Shown here piece after piece: positions 5,836 through 46,899 of a DNA stretch of 64,000 nt; the first letter of the stretch is position 1; the number at the start of each line of letters is the position of its first letter. The stretch lies in the NCBI RefSeq assembly GCF_003334785.1, contig NZ_QOWV01000004.1; one strand, written 5' to 3'. Source of the DNA: Escherichia coli (GTDB taxonomy: Bacteria; Pseudomonadota; Gammaproteobacteria; Enterobacterales; Enterobacteriaceae). The position numbers were made by a program, and so were the translations under genes. A model generated the notes under the pieces. That model saw nothing but the letters and a program-made list of their open reading frames with translations, did not search any database and was not told the origin of the DNA.

Positions 5836-5923
5836 GATTATCCTAAAGTTACACACATTTGCTGTGTAAAACGAGGGGTTTTCCGCAGGCAGGAGAGCAA
5901 AATGCCACGCTCTGTTCGTTGAT

Positions 5924-5950
5924 AAAAGGCCGCATAGCGGCCTTTTTCCT
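5924..5950. terminator. Bidirectional intrinsic terminator between yhbY and greA
   Basis: AAAAGGCCGC-ATAG-CGGCCTTTTT hairpin with A-run on one side and T-run on the other, between convergent genes. Confidence 0.7.
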
Positions 5951-5990
5951 TTCTTTACAATACATCAACATCTTGAGTATTGGGTAATTC

Positions 5991-6467
<477 letters not shown>

Positions 6468-6561
6468 TTGTTATACCTCTTGAATATTCCTGATAGGGCA
6501 AGTCTTCACCCACCCCGGCTGTTCGGCCTGCCCGGCATAACTCCTTACCGGGACCAGAAGC

Positions 6562-6640
6562 AAAAAAATACCGACCCGGGTACAAGTCCCAGGTCAGCTA
6601 CAATTCACATTTTGATAGTCATTTTACCCTGAAGTTCCCG
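6562..6640 (-). ncRNA. graL: greA leader region with intrinsic terminator (candidate GraL leader RNA); boundaries approximate
   Basis: On the minus strand a GACCUGGG..CCCGGGUC hairpin followed by a U7 run lies about 95 nt upstream of the greA start; 5' end not determinable from sequence. Confidence 0.35.
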
Positions 6641-6714
6641 AAGGGTCATCGTTTACTTTATAGGGCGTTGCGCCGTAGTATGACGGCTCGATTCCAGGTT
6701 GTTAGCGCGAGATT

Positions 6715-8148
6715 ATGCGATTTTCCAGATTTATCATCGGATTGACCAGCTGTATAGCGTTCAGTGTTCAGGCCGCAAATGTTGATGAGTACATTACTCA
6801 ACTCCCCGCTGGTGCCAACCTTGCCCTGATGGTGCAAAAAGTCGGCGCGTCGGCCCCCGCTATTGATTACCACAGTCAGCAGATGGCGCTGCCTGCCAGT
6901 ACCCAGAAAGTGATTACTGCGCTGGCGGCGTTGATTCAACTCGGCCCCGATTTTCGTTTTACCACGACGCTTGAAACCAAAGGCAATGTGGAAAACGGCG
7001 TACTTAAGGGTGACTTAGTGGCGCGATTTGGTGCCGATCCGACGTTAAAACGTCAGGATATTCGCAATATGGTCGCGACTTTGAAAAAATCTGGCGTCAA
7101 CCAAATCGATGGCAATGTGTTGATAGATACCTCCATTTTCGCCAGCCACGATAAAGCCCCCGGCTGGCCATGGAATGACATGACACAATGCTTTAGCGCT
7201 CCGCCTGCCGCCGCCATAGTTGACCGCAACTGTTTCTCCGTCTCGCTCTACAGTGCCCCAAAGCCTGGTGATATGGCTTTTATACGCGTGGCATCTTATT
7301 ACCCCGTTACGATGTTCAGCCAGGTACGCACCCTCCCCCGTGGTTCTGCCGAAGCGCAATACTGCGAACTGGATGTGGTGCCAGGCGACCTGAACCGCTT
7401 TACGCTGACGGGATGCCTGCCACAACGTTCTGAGCCGCTCCCGTTGGCTTTTGCCGTGCAGGATGGAGCCAGCTATGCCGGTGCAATTCTGAAAGATGAG
7501 TTAAAACAGGCGGGTATCACCTGGAGCGGAACACTGCTGCGCCAGACTCAGGTTAACGAACCTGGAACGGTAGTTGCCAGTAAACAGTCGGCCCCGCTGC
7601 ACGATCTGCTTAAGATTATGCTGAAAAAGTCGGACAACATGATCGCCGATACGGTTTTCCGCATGATAGGCCATGCGCGCTTCAATGTGCCTGGAACATG
7701 GCGGGCCGGGTCGGACGCCGTGCGTCAGATCCTGCGCCAGCAAGCCGGTGTCGATATTGGAAACACCATTATTGCCGATGGTTCAGGGCTTTCGCGGCAT
7801 AACCTGATTGCCCCCGCCACCATGATGCAGGTGCTGCAATACATTGCCCAACACGACAATGAACTTAACTTTATCTCCATGCTGCCGCTGGCGGGCTATG
7901 ACGGCTCTTTGCAGTACCGTGCAGGTCTGCATCAGGCGGGCGTGGATGGAAAAGTCTCAGCGAAAACCGGTTCGTTGCAGGGGGTATATAACCTGGCGGG
8001 ATTCATTACCACAGCGAGCGGGCAACGAATGGCGTTTGTGCAATATCTTTCTGGCTATGCAGTAGAACCTGCGGATCAGCGTAATCGCCGTATTCCGTTA
8101 GTGCGTTTTGAAAGCCGTTTGTATAAAGATATTTATCAGAACAATTAG
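6715..8148 (+). CDS. dacB: D-alanyl-D-alanine carboxypeptidase/endopeptidase PBP4
   Basis: 477 aa; signal peptide MRFSRFIIGLTSCIAFSVQA; STQK active-site motif. Confidence 0.96.
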   Translation: MRFSRFIIGLTSCIAFSVQAANVDEYITQLPAGANLALMVQKVGASAPAIDYHSQQMALPASTQKVITALAALIQLGPDFRFTTTLETKGNVENGVLKGDLVARFGADPTLKRQDIRNMVATLKKSGVNQIDGNVLIDTSIFASHDKAPGWPWNDMTQCFSAPPAAAIVDRNCFSVSLYSAPKPGDMAFIRVASYYPVTMFSQVRTLPRGSAEAQYCELDVVPGDLNRFTLTGCLPQRSEPLPLAFAVQDGASYAGAILKDELKQAGITWSGTLLRQTQVNEPGTVVASKQSAPLHDLLKIMLKKSDNMIADTVFRMIGHARFNVPGTWRAGSDAVRQILRQQAGVDIGNTIIADGSGLSRHNLIAPATMMQVLQYIAQHDNELNFISMLPLAGYDGSLQYRAGLHQAGVDGKVSAKTGSLQGVYNLAGFITTASGQRMAFVQYLSGYAVEPADQRNRRIPLVRFESRLYKDIYQNN

Positions 8149-8158
8149 TCAAAAAGAA

Positions 8159-8179
8159 ACCCCGGCACATGGCCGGGGC
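8159..8179 (+). terminator. Hairpin downstream of dacB (probable terminator)
   Basis: CCCCGGC-ACATG-GCCGGGG perfect 7-bp stem 11 nt after the dacB stop; weak T tract. Confidence 0.5.
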
Positions 8180-8211
8180 TTCAGATTATTGACAAAGTGC
8201 GCTTTGTTTAT

Positions 8212-8309
<98 letters not shown>

Positions 8310-8333
8310 TGATTTGGCGTTTATCATCAGTGA

Positions 8334-9521
<1,188 letters not shown>

Positions 9522-36937: not shown

Positions 36938-38368
<1,431 letters not shown>

Positions 38369-38381
38369 GCGAGGTAACAAT

Positions 38382-38409
38382 GAATTCGCCAGACTGTGTC
38401 TGGCGAATC
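38382..38409. repeat. Palindromic unit (GAATTCGCCAGAC-TGT-GTCTGGCGAATC), 13 nt after the gltD stop
   Basis: 12-13 bp perfect inverted arms with 3-nt centre; same family as the units in and after yhcG. Confidence 0.8.
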
Positions 38410-38927
38410 AAATTACTGACGAAGTGCGCGTTGTTTTCTGGCAAATGCGGCATGAGCGTTTGACCTTTCCTATAATAGGGATAATTTTCAATAAATTGTG
38501 CTTTGTTCACCAAGTCTGATGAGTGAAGCACATCAAGCAATTTCTCATTTACAATCCGTCTCAATTACTTGTTAACACCTCTGACAATACCGATTCTGCA
38601 AGCTATTCAGTCTTTTCATTCCATGTAAATTGTCTCGATATTAATATACAAAATATGAATATAAAAAACCAATATATTATCCTTAATTATCTATATATTT
38701 TCCTATTTTTCAGCGCAAACATTCATGTAATGAATAATTATCACCACAAACCACCTCACCAGCACCTTATTATTCACATGATCGTAACTATAAAATTCAT
38801 TAAATAAATACATCCCAGCAAGTTGGCTATTTCTGAACGAGTTATTTATTTACATTCACAAACAGATATATATACTGCTTCAGCTTTTTATTTTAAAAAA
38901 TAAATTTGTTATTAAGGATATGTTCAT

Positions 38928-39692
38928 ATGTTTTTCAAAAAGAACCTCACAACAGCTGCTATTTGTGCAGCACTTTCTGTTGCAGCATTCAGTGCCATGG
39001 CAACAGATTCAACTGATACAGAATTAACTATCATCGGCGAGTATACCCCTGGTGCATGTACCCCAGTTGTTACGGGCGGCGGCATTGTTGACTATGGGAA
39101 ACATCATAACAGTGCGCTGAATCCGACCGGTAAAAGTAATAAACTGGTTCAACTGGGCCGCAAAAACAGCACATTAAATATAACCTGCACAGCACCAACG
39201 CTAATTGCTGTAACCTCCAAGGATAACCGTCAGTCGACCATTGTAGCGTTAAACGACACATCCTATATTGAAAAAGCTTATGATACTCTCGTAGATATGA
39301 AGGGAACGAAAAACGCCTTTGGTTTAGGTTCTGCGCCTAATGGACAAAAAATTGGCGCTGCATCCATTGGTATTGACAGGTCTAATGGTGGGATTCACGC
39401 GGCGGACGATACAGGTGAAATTCCTGTCGACCTGATTCAAACTGACCACTGGTCAGCAGCGACCCCCACATGGAAAGCCTCATCTAATGGCGCATTCTGC
39501 TCGCTGACAAGTTGCTCAGCAATCGAGCGCGGTTATTCTGTTGCAAAAACAGGGGAACTGACACCTGTTGCCATTACAGCGGTCACCTTCCCGTTACTGA
39601 TTGATGCTGCGGTAAATGACAATACTATTCTTGGTTCTGATGAAACGATCAAACTGGATGGTAACGTCACTATCAGCGTTCAGTATTTATAA
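38928..39692 (+). CDS. gltF: GltF, periplasmic fimbrial-subunit-like protein (DUF1120 family)
   Basis: 254 aa; signal peptide MFFKKNLTTAAICAALSVAAFSAMA; C-terminal ...KLDGNVTISVQYL shared with yhcF. Confidence 0.9.
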   Translation: MFFKKNLTTAAICAALSVAAFSAMATDSTDTELTIIGEYTPGACTPVVTGGGIVDYGKHHNSALNPTGKSNKLVQLGRKNSTLNITCTAPTLIAVTSKDNRQSTIVALNDTSYIEKAYDTLVDMKGTKNAFGLGSAPNGQKIGAASIGIDRSNGGIHAADDTGEIPVDLIQTDHWSAATPTWKASSNGAFCSLTSCSAIERGYSVAKTGELTPVAITAVTFPLLIDAAVNDNTILGSDETIKLDGNVTISVQYL

Positions 39693-39863
39693 GAACTTGT
39701 AATACAGTTTTTATTTTTACGCATTAACCAGTTAGCTATAACTCGGACAGATTATGCCCTATGACATGGTCTGTCTTAATCAATCTCATCGCAAACAGTG
39801 CATAACATATATTAACAATATGTTTCTGCGTTATTTATCATTATTACAGGAGTTTTAATTTAA

Positions 39864-40538
39864 ATGCTCAGACACATTACATTCACTGTATTTATAACAA
39901 CATCAATGAATACCTTAGCCACAGGGATGGTTCCTGAAACATCAGTATTGCTGGTTGATGAAAAGCGTGGTGAAGCTAGTATTAATATTAAGAATACAGA
40001 TGATCATCCTTCATTGCTTTACACCACCATTGTTGATTTGCCTGAAAGCAATAAATCAATTCGTTTAATCCCGACTCAGCCCGTTATTCGTGTTGAAGCC
40101 GGTCAAGTACAACAGGTTCGATTTTTACTTCAGGCGACTGTTCCTCTGCAATCAGAAGAGCTGAAACGCGTAACGTTCGAAGGTATTCCACCAAAAGATG
40201 ACAAGAGCAGCAGAGTTACTGTTTCAATTCGTCAGGATCTACCTGTACTGATCCACCCGGCTTCCCTGCCGGAAGAGCGAGAGACCTGGAAATTCCTGGA
40301 ATGGCGTAAAAATGGCGACCAAATTGAGATTAGCAACCCCAGTAATTATGTCGTTCGTATGACCTTACAATTTAAAACGCTCCCTTCAGGAAAAACGGGG
40401 GCTATAAATAAGACCTATTTTCTACCACACACCAGTACAACTACTGCATTAACAAACGCTACGGATACAAAAGTCGAGTTTTACCCAGCCAGCCGATATG
40501 GTTATCGCGGTAATAAATATGTCACTGACTTAAAATAA
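39864..40538 (+). CDS. yhcA: Fimbrial periplasmic chaperone (PapD-like)
   Basis: 224 aa; MLRHITFTVFITTSMNTLATGMVPETSVLLVDEKRGEASINIKNTDD... Confidence 0.9.
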   Translation: MLRHITFTVFITTSMNTLATGMVPETSVLLVDEKRGEASINIKNTDDHPSLLYTTIVDLPESNKSIRLIPTQPVIRVEAGQVQQVRFLLQATVPLQSEELKRVTFEGIPPKDDKSSRVTVSIRQDLPVLIHPASLPEERETWKFLEWRKNGDQIEISNPSNYVVRMTLQFKTLPSGKTGAINKTYFLPHTSTTTALTNATDTKVEFYPASRYGYRGNKYVTDLK

Positions 40539-40558
40539 CTTTGCCTGGAGCGACAAGG

Positions 40559-42940
40559 ATGTTAAAAAAAACGTTACTGGCCTACACCATTGGTTTTGCC
40601 TTTTCTCCCCCAGCCAATGCAGATGGTATAGAGATTGCCGCTGTTGATTTTGATCGGGAAACATTAAAATCACTAGGTGTAGATCCTAATATATCGCATT
40701 ATTTTTCCCGTTCAGCCCGTTTTTTGCCAGGTGAATATTCACTGATAGTATCAGTAAATGGCGAAAAAAAAGGCAACATTGCTACGCGCTTTGATGAAAA
40801 TGGCGACATTTGTCTTGATCAGGCATTTCTGCAACAAGCCGGTTTAAAAATTCCTTCTGAAGAAAAAAATGGCTGTTACGACTATATATTGTCCTACCCG
40901 GGTACCACAATCACACCATTACCTAACCAGGAAGCGTTAGATATTATCGTTTCACCACAGGCGATCATTCCCATAGGGTTGGATCTCACAAACGCAGCAA
41001 CTGGTGGAACAGCTGCGCTGCTAAACTACTCTCTGATGAGCAGCCGTGCAGAATTTTCTAATGGGAGTTCGGACTACTCCCAGGCTGCACTTGAAGGCGG
41101 GATTAATATTAATGACTGGATGTTACGCAGCCATCAGTTCCTTACACAAACAAATGGCACATTCAGTAACCAGAACTCGTCAACCTACCTTCAACGTACC
41201 TTTACAGATCTTAAAACACTCATGCGAGCAGGTGAAGTTAACCTCAATAATAGCGTGTTGGAAGGAGCCAGTATTTACGGTATCGAAATCGCACCGGACA
41301 ACGCATTGCAAACCAGCGGCAATGGTGTGCAAGTTACTGGTATAGCCAACACCTCTCAGGCTCGTGTCGAGATTCGTCAACAAGGAGTTTTAATTCATTC
41401 CATTCTGGTTCCTGCGGGCGCATTCACTATCCCTGATGTACCTGTTCGCAATGGTAATAGTGATCTTAATGTCACCGTTGTCGAAACAGACGGTAGTTCG
41501 CACAACTATATTGTTCCCTCCACCCTGTTTAATCAGCATGTAGAAAGCTTCCAGGGTTATCGCTTCGCGATAGGGCGGGTAGACGATGACTATGACGAAT
41601 CACCTTGGGTAATTAGTGCATCGAGCGGATGGAATCTGACACGCTGGAGTGCAATGAACGGCGGCGTTATCGTAGCAGAAAATTATCAGGCGGCATCAAT
41701 CCGGTCGAGTCTGGTTCCCCTGCCCGATTTAACAGTGAGCAGCCAAATTAGTACATCGCAGGATACGAAAGACTCACTGCAAGGACAGAAATATCGTCTT
41801 GACGCGAACTACAATCTCCCATTTTCACTTGGGCTAACAACCAGCCTCACTCGATCTGATCGCCATTATCGCGAACTGTCTGAAGCGATTGATGATGATT
41901 ATACCGATCCGACTAAAAGCACTTATGCGCTTGGTTTAAACTGGTCTAACTCCATTCTGGGTGGTTTCAACATCAGTGGCTATAAAACATATAGTTACGA
42001 CGGTGACAATGACTCAAGCAACCTTAATATTAACTGGAACAAAGCGTTCAAACACGCCACGGTTTCCGTCAACTGGCAGCATCAACTTAGTGCTTCAGAA
42101 AATAATGAAGACGATGGTGATCTGTTCTACGTCAACATCAGTATTCCATTTGGCAGATCAAACACCGCCACACTGTATACTCGCCATGACGATCATAAAA
42201 CCCACTATGGTACTGGTGTCATGGGAGTCGTCTCAGATGAGATGTCCTACTATGTGAATGCTGAACGAGATCACGACGAACGTGAAACGAGCTTGAACGG
42301 CAGTATCAGTTCCAATCTCCATTACACCCAAGTCAGCCTTGCCGCAGGAGCAAGCGGCAGTGATAGCCGTACTTACAACGGTACGATGTCAGGTGGTATT
42401 GCCGTACATGATCAGGGAGTGACCTTTTCACCGTGGACTATCAATGACACTTTCGCCATCGCAAAAATGGATAACAATATTGCAGGTGTCAGAATTACAT
42501 CTCAGGCAGGCCCAGTATGGACAGATTTTCGGGGTAATGCCGTCATTCCATCAATCCAGCCGTGGCGAACATCAGGAGTTGAGATCGATACCGCCAGCTT
42601 GCCAAAAAATGTCGATATCGGTAACGGCACAAAAATGATCAAACAAGGCCGTGGTGCAGTAGGGAAAGTCGGATTCAGTGCGATAACACAACGCCGTGCA
42701 TTACTCAATATCACACTTTCCGACGGCAAAAAACTGCCCAGAGGCGTTGCGATTGAAGATAGTGAAGGCAACTATCTGACAACATCAGTGGATGACGGTG
42801 TTGTATTCCTCAATAACATCAAACCGGACATGGTGCTAGATATAAAAGATGAGCAGCAATCATGCCGTATTCACCTTACATTCCCAGAAGATGCACCAAA
42901 AGATGTGTTCTATGAGACAGCAACAGGAGAGTGCCAATGA
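40559..42940 (+). CDS. yhcD: Fimbrial outer membrane usher
   Basis: 793 aa from ATG (MLKKTLLAYTIGFAFSPPANA...); C-terminal Cys pair. Confidence 0.9.
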   Translation: MLKKTLLAYTIGFAFSPPANADGIEIAAVDFDRETLKSLGVDPNISHYFSRSARFLPGEYSLIVSVNGEKKGNIATRFDENGDICLDQAFLQQAGLKIPSEEKNGCYDYILSYPGTTITPLPNQEALDIIVSPQAIIPIGLDLTNAATGGTAALLNYSLMSSRAEFSNGSSDYSQAALEGGININDWMLRSHQFLTQTNGTFSNQNSSTYLQRTFTDLKTLMRAGEVNLNNSVLEGASIYGIEIAPDNALQTSGNGVQVTGIANTSQARVEIRQQGVLIHSILVPAGAFTIPDVPVRNGNSDLNVTVVETDGSSHNYIVPSTLFNQHVESFQGYRFAIGRVDDDYDESPWVISASSGWNLTRWSAMNGGVIVAENYQAASIRSSLVPLPDLTVSSQISTSQDTKDSLQGQKYRLDANYNLPFSLGLTTSLTRSDRHYRELSEAIDDDYTDPTKSTYALGLNWSNSILGGFNISGYKTYSYDGDNDSSNLNINWNKAFKHATVSVNWQHQLSASENNEDDGDLFYVNISIPFGRSNTATLYTRHDDHKTHYGTGVMGVVSDEMSYYVNAERDHDERETSLNGSISSNLHYTQVSLAAGASGSDSRTYNGTMSGGIAVHDQGVTFSPWTINDTFAIAKMDNNIAGVRITSQAGPVWTDFRGNAVIPSIQPWRTSGVEIDTASLPKNVDIGNGTKMIKQGRGAVGKVGFSAITQRRALLNITLSDGKKLPRGVAIEDSEGNYLTTSVDDGVVFLNNIKPDMVLDIKDEQQSCRIHLTFPEDAPKDVFYETATGECQ

Positions 42941-43482
42941 AACGGATAATAACAGGATGCCTGCTGCTGAACTTCGCCATGGCCGCTCAGGCAGAGTGTA
43001 ATATCTCCAGTAGCATACAAAATATCGACTATGGCAAACGAAGTGCTGCCATGCGCCAAGTTGACCGGGGTAAAACAACACAATTAGCAGACAGAACAAT
43101 CACGCTGGTAATGCAATGCGATCAGGACGCTCATATTCGTGTTCAGTTGAATACCGCTAATATTTCCAACAACGGATTTGGATTTGGCCCGAATGGTTCA
43201 TTAAATCTGATCGCCAGCGATGCATTTTCAGGTAGTAACAATCTCGACCTGGCGTTAGCCAGTGGCAAAAATGACAATCCGGGCAGCACAGGAACAGCAT
43301 CAATTAGTACTTCCCCCAATAATTGGCTGGTGTTTATGCAAAATGGTCAAGAAGTGGTAATTGATAGCGGTAAAAGCGTTAGCCTCACACTGACAATGGC
43401 TCCAGCTTTTAAGGATGAAGGGGAACTAACCGACATGACAGATATTACAGGCAATCTGACGGTCCTGGTGGAGGCAAAATGA
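42937..43482 (+). CDS. yhcE: Putative fimbrial subunit YhcE (DUF1120-like), apparently intact
   Basis: 181 aa from ATG overlapping the yhcD stop (ATGA); signal peptide MKRIITGCLLLNFAMAAQA; no insertion sequence in or near the ORF. Confidence 0.8.
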   Translation: MKRIITGCLLLNFAMAAQAECNISSSIQNIDYGKRSAAMRQVDRGKTTQLADRTITLVMQCDQDAHIRVQLNTANISNNGFGFGPNGSLNLIASDAFSGSNNLDLALASGKNDNPGSTGTASISTSPNNWLVFMQNGQEVVIDSGKSVSLTLTMAPAFKDEGELTDMTDITGNLTVLVEAK

Positions 43483-44195
43483 ACAATGTAAAATTACTGA
43501 TTGCCGGAAGTGCCTTTTTTGCCATGTCAGCGCAAGCCGCTGATAGAGTATCAATTGACGTTAAGGTGACTCTGGAAGCTGCAGCTTGTACTCCAATACT
43601 AAGCAACGGCGGAGTTGTTAACTTCGGTAGTCATTCAGTCAATAGACTTTCAACGCAGCACTACACACAGATTGGAACACGTAATATTAATATGACTATA
43701 ACTTGCGAATCCGCTACCGGCATTGCGATTACCGCTCGTGATACACGAATGGATAGTATGACCACCGGAAAAGATAGTGGGGGTCAGAGTGGTGTAAAAT
43801 ATACCTTAAATGGCGGAGGTTATATTAGCCAGACAACGCGCTTATTCGGCTTAGGGAAAACAAAAGATAATAAAAATATCGGTAGTTATGCCGTGTTAAT
43901 TGATAGCAACAACATTAGTGCCAGCAATGGTAGCCAGACGTTAGCTGTATCAATAGCAGGTGCAGATGCCGTCATAACAGGGCAAAAAAGAGCATGGCAA
44001 ACGCTCACCGCTTATCCGCTTGCAGTCGATCAAAGCTATTATTACACCTTTGTAAAACCAGGTGAAACAACCCCAACTCCTGTAACGAACGCCATTATAC
44101 CGCTTCAGGTGAGCGCATCTATCGCGAATGATTTAGGCGGTTCAGAAAAAATCGAACTTGATGGGAAAGCTGTGATAAGCGTAGTCTACTTGTGA
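43479..44195 (+). CDS. yhcF: Putative fimbrial subunit YhcF (DUF1120 family)
   Basis: 238 aa; signal peptide MNNVKLLIAGSAFFAMSAQA; C-terminal ...ELDGKAVISVVYL paralogous to gltF. Confidence 0.85.
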   Translation: MNNVKLLIAGSAFFAMSAQAADRVSIDVKVTLEAAACTPILSNGGVVNFGSHSVNRLSTQHYTQIGTRNINMTITCESATGIAITARDTRMDSMTTGKDSGGQSGVKYTLNGGGYISQTTRLFGLGKTKDNKNIGSYAVLIDSNNISASNGSQTLAVSIAGADAVITGQKRAWQTLTAYPLAVDQSYYYTFVKPGETTPTPVTNAIIPLQVSASIANDLGGSEKIELDGKAVISVVYL

Positions 44196-44379
44196 TAACA
44201 ATGCCGGACAGGAGTACTATCAGGCATTCGTTTTATACGATCGGTTAATGTTTCAGGAAAGCTCTTCGCATATCTTGGGGAAAGTAAATGTAATACGCTG
44301 TTCTTAATTGTTCAGTGCTCACCCCCCAGAGTATAGCTCATTCCATTATTCAACTTAGCTCCATATAAAGGGACAGATA

Positions 44380-45507
44380 ATGGAATCGCTCTCAGAAGGA
44401 ACCACAGCAGGCTACCAGCAAATCCACGACGGTATTATTCATCTGGTCGATAGCGCCCGGACGGAAACGGTACGTAGCGTTAACGCGTTAATGACCGCGA
44501 CGTACCAGGAAATTGGCCGACGAATTGTCGAATTTGAACAAGGTGGCGAGGCCAGGGCTGCGTATGGTGCGCAGCTAATCAAGCGACTATCAAAGGATTT
44601 ATGTCTAAGGTATAAGCGTGGGTTCTCTGCAAAAAACTTACGCCAAATGAGGCTTTTTTACCTCTTTTTTCAACATGTTGAAATTCGCCAGACAATGTCT
44701 GGCGAATTAACACCATTGGGAATTCCGCAGACACCGTCTGCAGAATTCCCATCGGCAAAGATTTGGCAGACGCTGTCTGCCAAATCTTTCCCCTTGCCCA
44801 GGTCCACCTACGTCCGTTTACTTTCCGTTAAAAACGCTGACGCCCGCAGCTTTTATGAAAAAGAGACGCTCCGCTGTGGCTGGTCTGTTCGCCAGCTAGA
44901 GCGGCAAATTGCGACCCAGTTTTATGAGCGGACACTACTGTCACATGACAAATCAGCCATGCTGCAACAACACGCTCCTGCCGAGACGCATATTCTTCCG
45001 CAACAGGCGATACGCGATCCCTTTGTGCTCGAATTTCTGGAATTGAAAGATGAATATTCAGAATCCGATTTTGAGGAGGCGCTGATCAACCACCTGATGG
45101 ATTTCATGCTGGAACTTGGGGATGATTTTGCCTTTGTTGGTCGGCAGCGAAGGTTACGCATTGATGACAACTGGTTTCGTGTCGATCTGCTGTTTTTCCA
45201 CCGCCGTTTACGCTGCCTGCTAATCGTCGATCTAAAAGTGGGCAAATTCAGCTATAGCGATGCCGGACAGATGAATATGTATCTCAACTACGCCAAAGAG
45301 CACTGGACGCTACCGGATGAAAATCCGCCCATCGGTCTGGTTCTCTGTGCAGAGAAAGGAGCCGGAGAAGCGCATTATGCTCTGGCAGGTTTGCCTAACA
45401 CCGTTCTGGCAAGCGAATATAAGATGCAACTACCTGATGAGAAACGACTCGCAGATGAACTCGTTCGAACACAGGCGGTGCTAGAGGAAGGCTATAGACG
45501 CCGTTAA
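44380..45507 (+). CDS. yhcG: YhcG, DUF1016-family protein with PD-(D/E)xK nuclease-like C-terminal region
   Basis: 375 aa; MESLSEGTTAGYQQIHDGIIHLVDSARTE...; C-terminal ...RVDLLFFHRRLRCLLIVDLKVGKF... resembles a D...(D/E)xK core; contains three in-frame palindromic repeat units. Confidence 0.85.
   Translation: MESLSEGTTAGYQQIHDGIIHLVDSARTETVRSVNALMTATYQEIGRRIVEFEQGGEARAAYGAQLIKRLSKDLCLRYKRGFSAKNLRQMRLFYLFFQHVEIRQTMSGELTPLGIPQTPSAEFPSAKIWQTLSAKSFPLPRSTYVRLLSVKNADARSFYEKETLRCGWSVRQLERQIATQFYERTLLSHDKSAMLQQHAPAETHILPQQAIRDPFVLEFLELKDEYSESDFEEALINHLMDFMLELGDDFAFVGRQRRLRIDDNWFRVDLLFFHRRLRCLLIVDLKVGKFSYSDAGQMNMYLNYAKEHWTLPDENPPIGLVLCAEKGAGEAHYALAGLPNTVLASEYKMQLPDEKRLADELVRTQAVLEEGYRRR
44682..44787. 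repeat. Three tandem 27-29 bp palindromic units (CAGAC-N3-GTCTG core) inside the yhcG coding sequence
   Basis: Units at 44682-44708, 44720-44748 and 44759-44787 with 38-39 bp periodicity; 12-13 bp inverted arms, two perfect and one with a single mismatch. Confidence 0.8.
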
Positions 45508-45520
45508 TTTCAGCGGTTTC

Positions 45521-45548
45521 GAATTCTGCAGACAGTGTCTGCAGAATC
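45521..45548. repeat. Palindromic unit (GAATTCTGCAGAC-AGT-GTCTGCAGAATC), 13 nt after the yhcG stop
   Basis: Perfect inverted arms; same family as 38382-38409 and the intragenic yhcG units; lies between convergent yhcG and yhcH. Confidence 0.8.
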
Positions 45549-45566
45549 TTTAAAACGAACTAAGTT

Positions 45567-46899
<1,333 letters not shown>

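Follow-up and report, generated by a model that had tools for sequence, protein, structure and literature searches.

The DNA window analyzed here is a stretch of 64,000 nucleotides from Escherichia coli (assembly GCF_003334785.1, contig NZ_QOWV01000004.1), and the work centres on the gene yhcG and on a short palindromic unit repeated in frame within it. According to the list of open reading frames, yhcG occupies positions 44380 to 45507 on the + strand and encodes 375 amino acids plus a stop codon from an ATG start. Its DNA was 100% identical to annotated yhcG in K-12-like E. coli genomes, and the RefSeq label is "PDDEXK nuclease domain-containing protein" or "YhcG family protein". On one side it is flanked by yhcF, with which the gltF-yhcADEF fimbrial cluster ends, and on the other by nanQ, which is convergent with it. 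In a preliminary description of this DNA the palindromes had been handled as incidental, but they proved to be the most informative feature of both the gene and its family, DUF1016.

Three units of 25-27 nt were found within yhcG, all on the + strand and in frame, with a period of 39 nt (13 codons) and 12-nt spacers. Unit 1 (44682 to 44708), identified by the repeat finder, is a perfect palindrome with the structure AATTCGCCAGACA-A-TGTCTGGCGAATT (13/1/13) and encodes IRQTMSGEL. Unit 2 (44717 to 44751), which starts 39 nt after unit 1, has 15 pairs with one mismatch and encodes IPQTPSAEF, while unit 3 (44754 to 44792), starting 39 nt after unit 2, has 18-nt arms that are 94% complementary and encodes IWQTLSAKS. 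Two more units were present on the same strand outside the gene: a perfect 12/1/12 unit 16 nt after the yhcG stop codon and in frame with yhcG (45523 to 45547), and a stand-alone unit 16 nt after the gltD stop codon (38384 to 38408), at the left edge of the gltF-yhcADEF-yhcG segment. The core CAGAC-N3-GTCTG occurred five times in the 64 kb against 0.05 expected, always in the gltD-nanQ interval, which bears out the earlier claim that yhcG hosts a palindromic array; a longer 25-nt pattern likewise gave five matches in the window (0.01 expected). The copies were not identical (GCCAGAC, CGCAGAC, GGCAGAC and TGCAGAC), each of them still being self-complementary. As DNA hairpins, units 1, 2 and 3 had folding energies of -13.1, -13.8 and -15.8 kcal/mol (z of -8.3, -7.5 and -8.0, respectively), and the units at 45523-45547 and 38384-38408 of -10.8 and -12.1 kcal/mol, with z-values from -6.3 to -8.3 across the five. 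A promoter and terminator scan yielded nothing beyond shuffle expectation, and no unit scored as an intrinsic terminator. An EcoRI site (GAATTC) was observed in the outer arm of four of the five units (38382, 44721, 44742 and 45521), probably as a consequence of their AATT ends.

In order to evaluate the distribution of the unit beyond E. coli, 80 DUF1016 loci were fetched from one-genome-per-species contigs, covering Beta- and Gammaproteobacteria, Acidobacteria, Chloroflexi, Elusimicrobia, Planctomycetes, Bacteroidetes, Firmicutes and candidate phyla among the bacteria, and DPANN among the archaea. Each gene was compared with synonymous-codon shuffles of itself, in which the protein is kept unchanged. 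A perfect stem of at least 9 bp was present in 75% of the 80 genes versus 4% of the shuffles, and one of at least 11 bp in 57.5% versus 0.5%. The unit, AATTnnnCAGAC-N3-GTCTGnnnAATT, was fixed in geometry and codon phase across bacterial and archaeal DUF1016 genes. When codon phase was scored in 123 distinct genes (the 80-locus set with 41 further viral loci added), the best palindrome with at least 10 of 12 pairs was in phase 0 in 103 genes, in phase 1 in six and in phase 2 in four, and the centre of the unit fell on the first codon position in 107 of 110 units. Among the 75 loci with a unit, 44 had one, 27 had two and four had three. The units were found at approximately residues 75 to 140, between a conserved MRxFYxxYP helix and a conserved LSWSHY helix, in the sole stretch that is both hypervariable in length and predicted to be disordered.

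The ungapped alignment of 104 units gave the consensus AATTTnCCAGACACTGTCTGGnAAATC. Pairing was observed in 92.9% of the cells of this alignment, a percentage inflated by the choice of its members for palindromy, compared with 72.6% after shuffling and 20-46% with the partner slid. Double-sided changes were detected in 11 of the 12 pairs, the four mid-stem pairs each showing three or four Watson-Crick types, while loop and arm geometry were constant (zero gaps in the 104 units). Seven positions (A5, A12, C15, G19, T22, A27 and T29) were at least 90% conserved, and the blocks AGAC/GTCT and ATT/AAT were conserved across phyla. Unbiased figures are provided by the synonymous-shuffle test, by the 123-gene phase test and by a scan of viral contigs for ATTNNNCAGACNNNGTCTGNNNAAT with the mid-stem left free, which served as an independent test of covariation. 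In that scan the three free pairs were all complementary in 15 of 27 distinct units, against 0.4 expected (P ~1e-20), and two of the three were complementary in 10 more, with nine different triplets represented. The encoded amino acids covaried as base pairing dictates (Q with G, E with R, and V with A-Q). The palindrome is therefore a family-wide trait that reflects a constraint on the nucleic acid, with the peptide as its by-product.

The level at which this constraint operates was approached through the mismatches. In 169 distinct units, 31 mismatches of the G:T type and 54 of the A:C type were counted on the sense strand, and G:U made up approximately 1% of the cells in the stem alignment. 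Under selection for a sense RNA, G:U should be common and A:C rare, and the observed pattern was contrary to this expectation; the G:U excess sought as the mark of a sense-strand RNA hairpin was absent. In addition, Rfam gave no match up to E = 1 for window positions 38300-45700. Conserved bases in a fixed geometry speak for a protein that recognises the unit, while the complementary changes at the positions between them speak for pairing within one strand or for copying from arm to arm. Judged from these patterns, an element acting as DNA would fit the data better than one acting as RNA. A CRISPR-like array was discarded, given the 12-nt spacers, the in-frame coding, the differences between repeats and the lack of cas genes among the K-12 neighbours.

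The behaviour of the gltD-nanQ locus was surveyed in 5426 complete E. coli genomes, and four architectures were distinguished. In architecture A (947 of the 5426 genomes) yhcG is absent, and gltD and nanQ are separated by a 67-bp spacer with a single unit. Architecture B consists of gltD, 180 nt without a unit, yhcG, a unit and nanQ. Architecture C, that of the window and of K-12, runs gltD, unit, gltF-yhcADEF, yhcG, unit and nanQ, and its gltD-proximal unit with this junction was present in about 1290 genomes; in architecture D, other islands replace these contents. The left flank of the empty site A matched that of the left copy in C, and its right flank that of the right copy, indicating that a segment of about 7.1 kb (window 38369-45547) is bounded by two units. 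The single-unit spacer could have arisen either by deletion between units or by insertion at a unit. Among the matches listed, the units were confined to this locus, in one to four places per genome, and a genome-wide dispersed repeat of the repetitive extragenic palindromic (REP) or enterobacterial repetitive intergenic consensus (ERIC) kind was discarded on this basis. Within the segment, yhcE (42931-43482) is intact in the window and encodes 183 amino acids, while an IS5 insertion interrupts it in the MG1655 record; the window therefore derives from a K-12-like strain that lacks this insertion.

Within yhcG itself, more breakpoints coincided with the units. The alleles of K-12 and EBJ003 were 97-100% identical except in a patch of about 170 bp (window 44622-44790 versus 1870-2010 of locus L002), where identity dropped to 55-70%, the units differed, and the divergence ended at unit 3; judging by the sequences, this patch has the look of a gene-conversion tract donated by a diverged homologue. 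It also alters part of a conserved helix (NLRQMRLFYLFF versus NLWQFKNFYICF). In strain GPEC1040, the right edge of unit 3 is exactly where homology to yhcG ends, and a different small gene comes next. About 480 bp (L182 3529-3930) take the place of the 3' two-thirds of yhcG beyond unit 3 in this strain, and they hold a 101-amino-acid open reading frame annotated as "transposase", although it is unlike a typical transposase. In the O157-type allele, which carries a frameshift annotation, an 80-nt deletion has taken out units 2 and 3. This deletion is probably the yhcG length polymorphism of LSPA-6 typing, in which yhcG serves as a length-polymorphic marker of E. coli O157 (PMC3514354). YhcG proteins of 349, 358, 362, 370, 375, 382 and 391 amino acids were found in E. 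coli, differing by unit number; the 391-residue form (P0021) has lost the stop codon, and translation continues through the post-stop unit as ...RILQTLSGES. The truncated yhcG genes of QDFD216 and MRSN346638 result from ordinary insertions of IS1 and IS3, and the end of the DUF1016 remnant in KFu014 (L003) did not fall at a palindrome.

Stand-alone units were also searched in other genomes. Among the 41 units recovered by the viral scan, 23 were in DUF1016-like open reading frames, about five in recognisable remnants and about 12 elsewhere, for example upstream of a major head gene or at the 3' end of a clamp-loader-like reading frame. One viral contig held two abutting non-coding units 23 nt apart (L099 9938-9985), a spacing that is not a multiple of three, in contrast to all in-gene arrays. 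On another, 327 kb long, a perfect unit (L094 7563-7587) was read in frame as MIGQTVSGQS within a reading frame lacking DUF1016 similarity, which could be an in-frame insertion into another gene. On a plasmid of Vescimonas (Clostridia), the perfect unit GAGATTTTCCAGACGCTGTCTGGAAAATCTG (L183 4001-4030) lies between divergent genes beside an operon with an Rrf2 regulator; its outer arms equal those in Burkholderiales DUF1016 genes, and no DUF1016 homology was detected within 4 kb. Several further plasmid matches without an annotated feature turned out to be unannotated DUF1016 pseudogenes. In the 80 loci with their 8-kb flanks, a stand-alone unit beside a DUF1016 gene was observed only in one genome of the Ignavibacteria, 2.3 kb upstream of the gene (L033 5702-5732). 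It is followed, at 5911-9080, by a SIR2-like defence gene (PADLOC Aga_SIR2, E 7e-18), a gene of unknown function and the DUF1016 gene, which has two internal units, a layout like that of K-12 with a different cargo. Neither target-site duplications nor conserved flanks were found around the stand-alone units, and a miniature transposon was rejected for want of such duplications.

The protein encoded by yhcG was resolved into two modules. Pfam DUF1016_N (PF17761, E 1.3e-36) covers a helical domain at residues 19-184 (44434 to 44931, + strand), and YhcG_C (PF06250, E 1.6e-56, model positions 1-155 of 157) covers residues 208-360 (45001 to 45459, + strand). PDC-S02, which PADLOC lists as a candidate single-gene defence system, was also matched (PDLC04807, E 2.8e-131, and more than 20 further PDC-S02 models), while NCBIfam gave no match to YhcG, and a sequence search of the PDB only chance matches (E ~0.3). 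The family is very large, with 21,241 clusters at E <=0.001 in a search of 1.84 billion representative proteins. The preliminary description had quoted a D...(D/E)xK-like core in the C-terminus, which stands in the translation exactly as given (FRVDLLFFHRRLRCLLIVDLKVGKF), and had read it as a restriction-endonuclease fold; the Pfam profile, the conserved E...D...DxK residues and the predicted fold all back that reading. In alignments of 44 and 10 full-length distant homologues (35-58% identity), E228, E245, D269, D284, K286 and Q297 were invariant or at least 90% conserved, with D269 within VDLLFF and D284 and K286 within IVDLK. The catalytic codons lie on the + strand at 45112-45114 (E245), 45184-45186 (D269), 45229-45231 (D284) and 45235-45237 (K286). 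In the AlphaFold model (mean pLDDT 78), E245 ends helix 228-246, D269 is on the second strand (264-274) and D284-x-K286 on the third (279-286); the core is alpha-beta-beta-beta-alpha-beta, matching solved PD-(D/E)xK nucleases, with a canonical placement of the catalytic residues, so that the site appears competent. Sequence and model together thus point to a PD-(D/E)xK nuclease module with a complete active site, which would be expected to be active.

The units encode a linker (44689 to 44799, + strand; about residues 104-140) that is predicted to be disordered, with pLDDT below 50 at residues 106-130 (full model) and 104-120 (N-domain model), and whose length is hypervariable across the family alignment. 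When residues 1-205 were modelled alone (pLDDT 82), the best PDB matches were helix-turn-helix domains of the ParB/Spo0J/KorB type, with modest scores. Domains of this type, including that of Noc, bind short palindromes as dimers. No sequence profile supported a link of the N-domain to ParB or KorB, Pfam detected only DUF1016_N and YhcG_C in YhcG and no ParB N-terminal (CTP-binding) domain, and no gene for a parA-like partner ATPase was found among the K-12 neighbours within 20 kb. On this modest structural evidence, the N-terminal helical module may be a ParB/KorB-like DNA-binding domain. Two seemingly similar motifs, GFSAKNLRQMRLFY at residues 81-96 and GWSVRQLERQIATQFY at residues 168-184, flank the palindrome-encoded linker, a likeness suggestive of an internal duplication that has the palindrome at its junction.

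Regarding the gene neighbourhood, the K-12 genes within 20 kb on each side of yhcG comprise gltBD, gltF-yhcADEF, nanQKETAR, sspAB, ribosomal genes and others. They include no methyltransferase, specificity subunit or known defence gene, in agreement with what had been reported for the immediate surroundings. With no hsdM, hsdS or hsdR within that distance, K-12 yhcG does not qualify as a gene associated with type I restriction-modification, and with no cognate DNA methyltransferase, it does not qualify as a type II restriction endonuclease either. In the 80 loci from other species, neighbours included hsdM (11), hsdR (5), hsdS (3 plus 3), and Fic, an integrase and another methyltransferase (3 each), the majority of neighbourhoods being unrelated. 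The description of the gene as solitary consequently holds for the E. coli locus but not as a rule for the family, in view of the 11 loci with an hsdM neighbour: E. coli yhcG is an orphan, and the family is only sometimes embedded in restriction-modification operons. A published small RNA, G0-10703, antisense or divergent, maps near window positions ~44200-44400; a 128-bp overlap with the yhcG 5' region and induction in stationary phase have been reported for it (PMC7967276).

The explanation that we favour, tentatively and with the whole chain of steps held to be less likely than not, is that YhcG binds the hairpin-forming palindrome of its own gene, with self-limitation, site-directed cutting or both as the outcome. 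As the element travels with the gene in bacteria, archaea and phages, and its own product is the sole constant companion, YhcG is the candidate reader. The protein would be a two-module DNA enzyme, with an N-terminal DNA-binding module and a C-terminal nuclease, whose gene, like those of almost all family members, carries in frame one to three copies of its putative recognition element. Dimers of YhcG may bind the palindrome as a duplex or as an extruded hairpin or cruciform, and this binding would tie the enzyme to its own locus, as occurs in ParB proteins with parS inside parB. The likeliest uses would be self-limited expression and site- or structure-directed cutting of DNA bearing such sites. 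Units that are prone to form hairpins, and possibly cut, would be hot spots for duplication, deletion and segment exchange, which would explain the copy-number alleles and the insertions and deletions at gltD-nanQ. The E. coli gene is a dispensable orphan copy of a family whose other members belong to type I restriction-modification operons, mobile elements and phages. Confidence falls along this chain, being highest for an element that acts as DNA, lower for DNA binding by the N-domain, lower again for its own site as the target, and lowest for self-limitation or cutting. The reported synthetic lethality of a yhcG deletion with dnaB, dnaN and parE hypomorphs (PMC2672614) was counted in favour of this explanation.

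Several observations weigh against it. About 15% of the family members lack a good unit, and the core differs between copies within one gene (CAGAC with GAATC in L008, TACAC with CAGAC in L049), so that the copies cannot all serve as one sequence-specific site. The gene is frameshifted, disrupted by insertion sequences or deleted in numerous E. coli genomes, and its function, whatever it may be, is dispensable. A dimer reading duplex DNA leaves the complementarity of the uncontacted mid-stem positions unexplained, and a nuclease with a target inside its own gene would need some mechanism of protection. Furthermore, in the only phage test found in the literature, one PDC-S02 homologue from a cold seep gave no protection against T4, T5 or T7 (bioRxiv 10.1101/2024.09.26.614923).

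A wider form of the same idea, which we hold with more reserve, is that a DUF1016/YhcG gene and its in-frame palindrome constitute a self-contained enzyme-plus-site module, conserved in bacteria, archaea and phages, which would be a hitherto unrecognised class of site-specific recombinogenic or defence element. The protein would recognise, and possibly cut, a hairpin or cruciform site in the DNA coding for its own linker, and the stand-alone copies would mark the gain or loss of neighbours, such as the fimbrial operon of K-12 or the SIR2 gene of Ignavibacteria.

Among the alternatives to binding by YhcG, the one that survives best, although we consider it unlikely, is a neutral and self-perpetuating quasi-palindrome devoid of function, in which template switching copies the changes of one arm onto its partner. 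On this account an inverted repeat of 12-13 bp with a 1-3-nt loop sits in DNA that encodes a tolerant, disordered protein loop, and the hairpin also gives rise to slippage, duplication and deletion. In E. coli, mutation by templated correction of quasi-palindromes is well established. The mismatches described above are mostly single changes and their lack of a G:T excess over A:C is what DNA-level conversion, and not RNA selection, would produce; the disorder and variable length of the encoded peptide and the behaviour of the units as rearrangement hot spots in E. coli also agree with it. However, hairpins are prone to deletion and cannot be recovered once lost, yet about 85% of the genes keep one at the same site and in the same frame. 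Conversion alone predicts neither the bases conserved across phyla nor the invariant spacing, and identical 25-mers occur in Burkholderiales genes and on the Clostridia plasmid.

The possibility that the unit works as a stem-loop of the yhcG mRNA, in autoregulation, processing, ribosome pausing or protection, or as a protein-bound RNA cofactor or antitoxin comparable to the repeat RNAs of type III toxin-antitoxin systems or to the RNAs embedded in tnpB genes, seems improbable to us. The element is always transcribed with the gene, and the three internal units fold in RNA into three strong stem-loops (-67.6 kcal/mol, z -10.9); tandem 39-nt repeats also recall ToxI-type arrays. Against these points stand the disfavoured G:U wobble and the lack of an Rfam match, together with the stand-alone copies between divergent genes and in other contexts. 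The equal conservation of the unit in DPANN archaea and bacteria would, moreover, still leave the protein itself as the trans-acting factor.

We see an equally small chance that the units are recombination sites or miniature mobile elements with DUF1016 as their nuclease, in the manner of a REP/RAYT system or a cassette-exchange module, marking the points at which DNA segments are inserted, excised or swapped beside the gene. Several of the arrangements described above are of the kind this would produce: one unit at the empty site and one at each end of the occupied K-12 site, the order of unit, SIR2-like gene, unknown gene and DUF1016 gene in Ignavibacteria, the replacement of the 3' part of GPEC1040 yhcG exactly after unit 3, stand-alone units far from any DUF1016 gene in phage contigs and on a plasmid, and the unit in frame in an unrelated reading frame. 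On the other hand, the E. coli units are, among the matches listed, restricted to one locus, a single stand-alone copy was found in the 80 flanked loci, most genes have internal units and none at their ends, and the stand-alone units show neither target-site duplications nor conserved flanks; breakpoints at hairpins, besides, are expected without any enzyme. Finally, a peptide motif I-x-Q-T-x-S-x-(K/E)-(L/F) used by the protein, with the DNA symmetry as its by-product, is highly improbable, because, despite a fairly conserved Q-T-x-S core always placed just before the LSWSHY helix and copy-number changes that keep the frame, the palindromes are destroyed by shuffling that keeps every amino acid (4% versus 75% with stems of at least 9 bp), paired amino acid changes are set by base pairing (Q..G with E..R, V..AQ), untranslated copies exist (38384-38408 and 45523-45547) and the region is predicted to be disordered.

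Without the palindrome, yhcG would be one more uncharacterised y-gene of known fold; with it, a concrete and cheaply tested candidate DNA ligand becomes available for a very large family (more than 21,000 clusters at 50% identity) often met in restriction-modification operons, defence islands and phages. The unit is also a clean natural case of a nucleic-acid constraint overriding protein sequence within an open reading frame in two domains of life, and it would explain both the yhcG length polymorphism used in O157 typing and the rearrangement hot spot at gltD-nanQ. Should YhcG indeed bind its own gene, DUF1016 would join ParB-parS as a system with the site within the gene of its reader, here coupled to a nuclease.

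The gene and its fold were already known, YhcG having given its name to the family, and the palindromic element is the new part. A paper of 2005 (PMC1189080) had already placed YhcG among the PD-(D/E)xK nucleases, giving its motif as E-D-E(I/L/V)K and its affinity as resolvase-like, and a proteomic and genetic atlas tied the protein to HsdMRS, McrBC and integrases (PMC2672614). DUF1016 genes have been described inside type I restriction-modification loci and beside an inversion-targeted type II restriction-modification gene, a Cj0031 homologue (PMC9881135), on Rickettsia conjugative elements (PMC4316617) and in prophages (PMC11341870). No report linking DUF1016 or yhcG with a palindrome, hairpin or inverted repeat was found in a literature search that covered subscription journals thinly, and the cis element appears to be undescribed so far.

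Compared with known systems, the E. coli protein does not differ from the YhcG/DUF1016 family (PF17761 plus PF06250, COG4804, PDC-S02), of which it is the naming member. NucS/EndoMS and archaeal Hjc, as well as restriction, Cas4, Can2 and Shedu nucleases, share only 8-15% sequence identity with YhcG, whose N-terminal domain differs from theirs. ParB/Spo0J, Noc and KorB, with their parS, NBS and OB sites, are the best structural matches of the N-domain. Two leads arise here: Bacillus subtilis has its first parS site within the coding sequence of spo0J, and the outer arm most often seen in the unit (ATTTCC.) is similar to ATTTCCC, the half-site of Noc. Type I restriction-modification operons embed accessory genes (PrrC, RhuM, Fic and DUF1016), DUF1016 often between hsd genes, whereas K-12 yhcG is an orphan with no hsd gene within 20 kb. 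Such embedded genes, PrrC for example, may act as second-line effectors. In the Rickettsia palindromic elements and in mitochondrial genes of Nematomorpha (PMC6649704), inverted repeats are likewise tolerated in frame, but they are lineage-specific insertions scattered over many unrelated genes, while the DUF1016 unit keeps to one family, one position and one frame in two domains of life. REP/RAYT systems (REPtrons) resemble YhcG in combining the gene of a DNA-cleaving enzyme with short hairpin palindromes, stand-alone copies included; RAYTs, however, are HUH/Y1 enzymes and YhcG belongs to the PD-(D/E)xK nucleases, and REPs occupy intergenic DNA in hundreds of copies, whereas the YhcG units lie in frame in the gene and, in the E. 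coli matches listed, at one locus.

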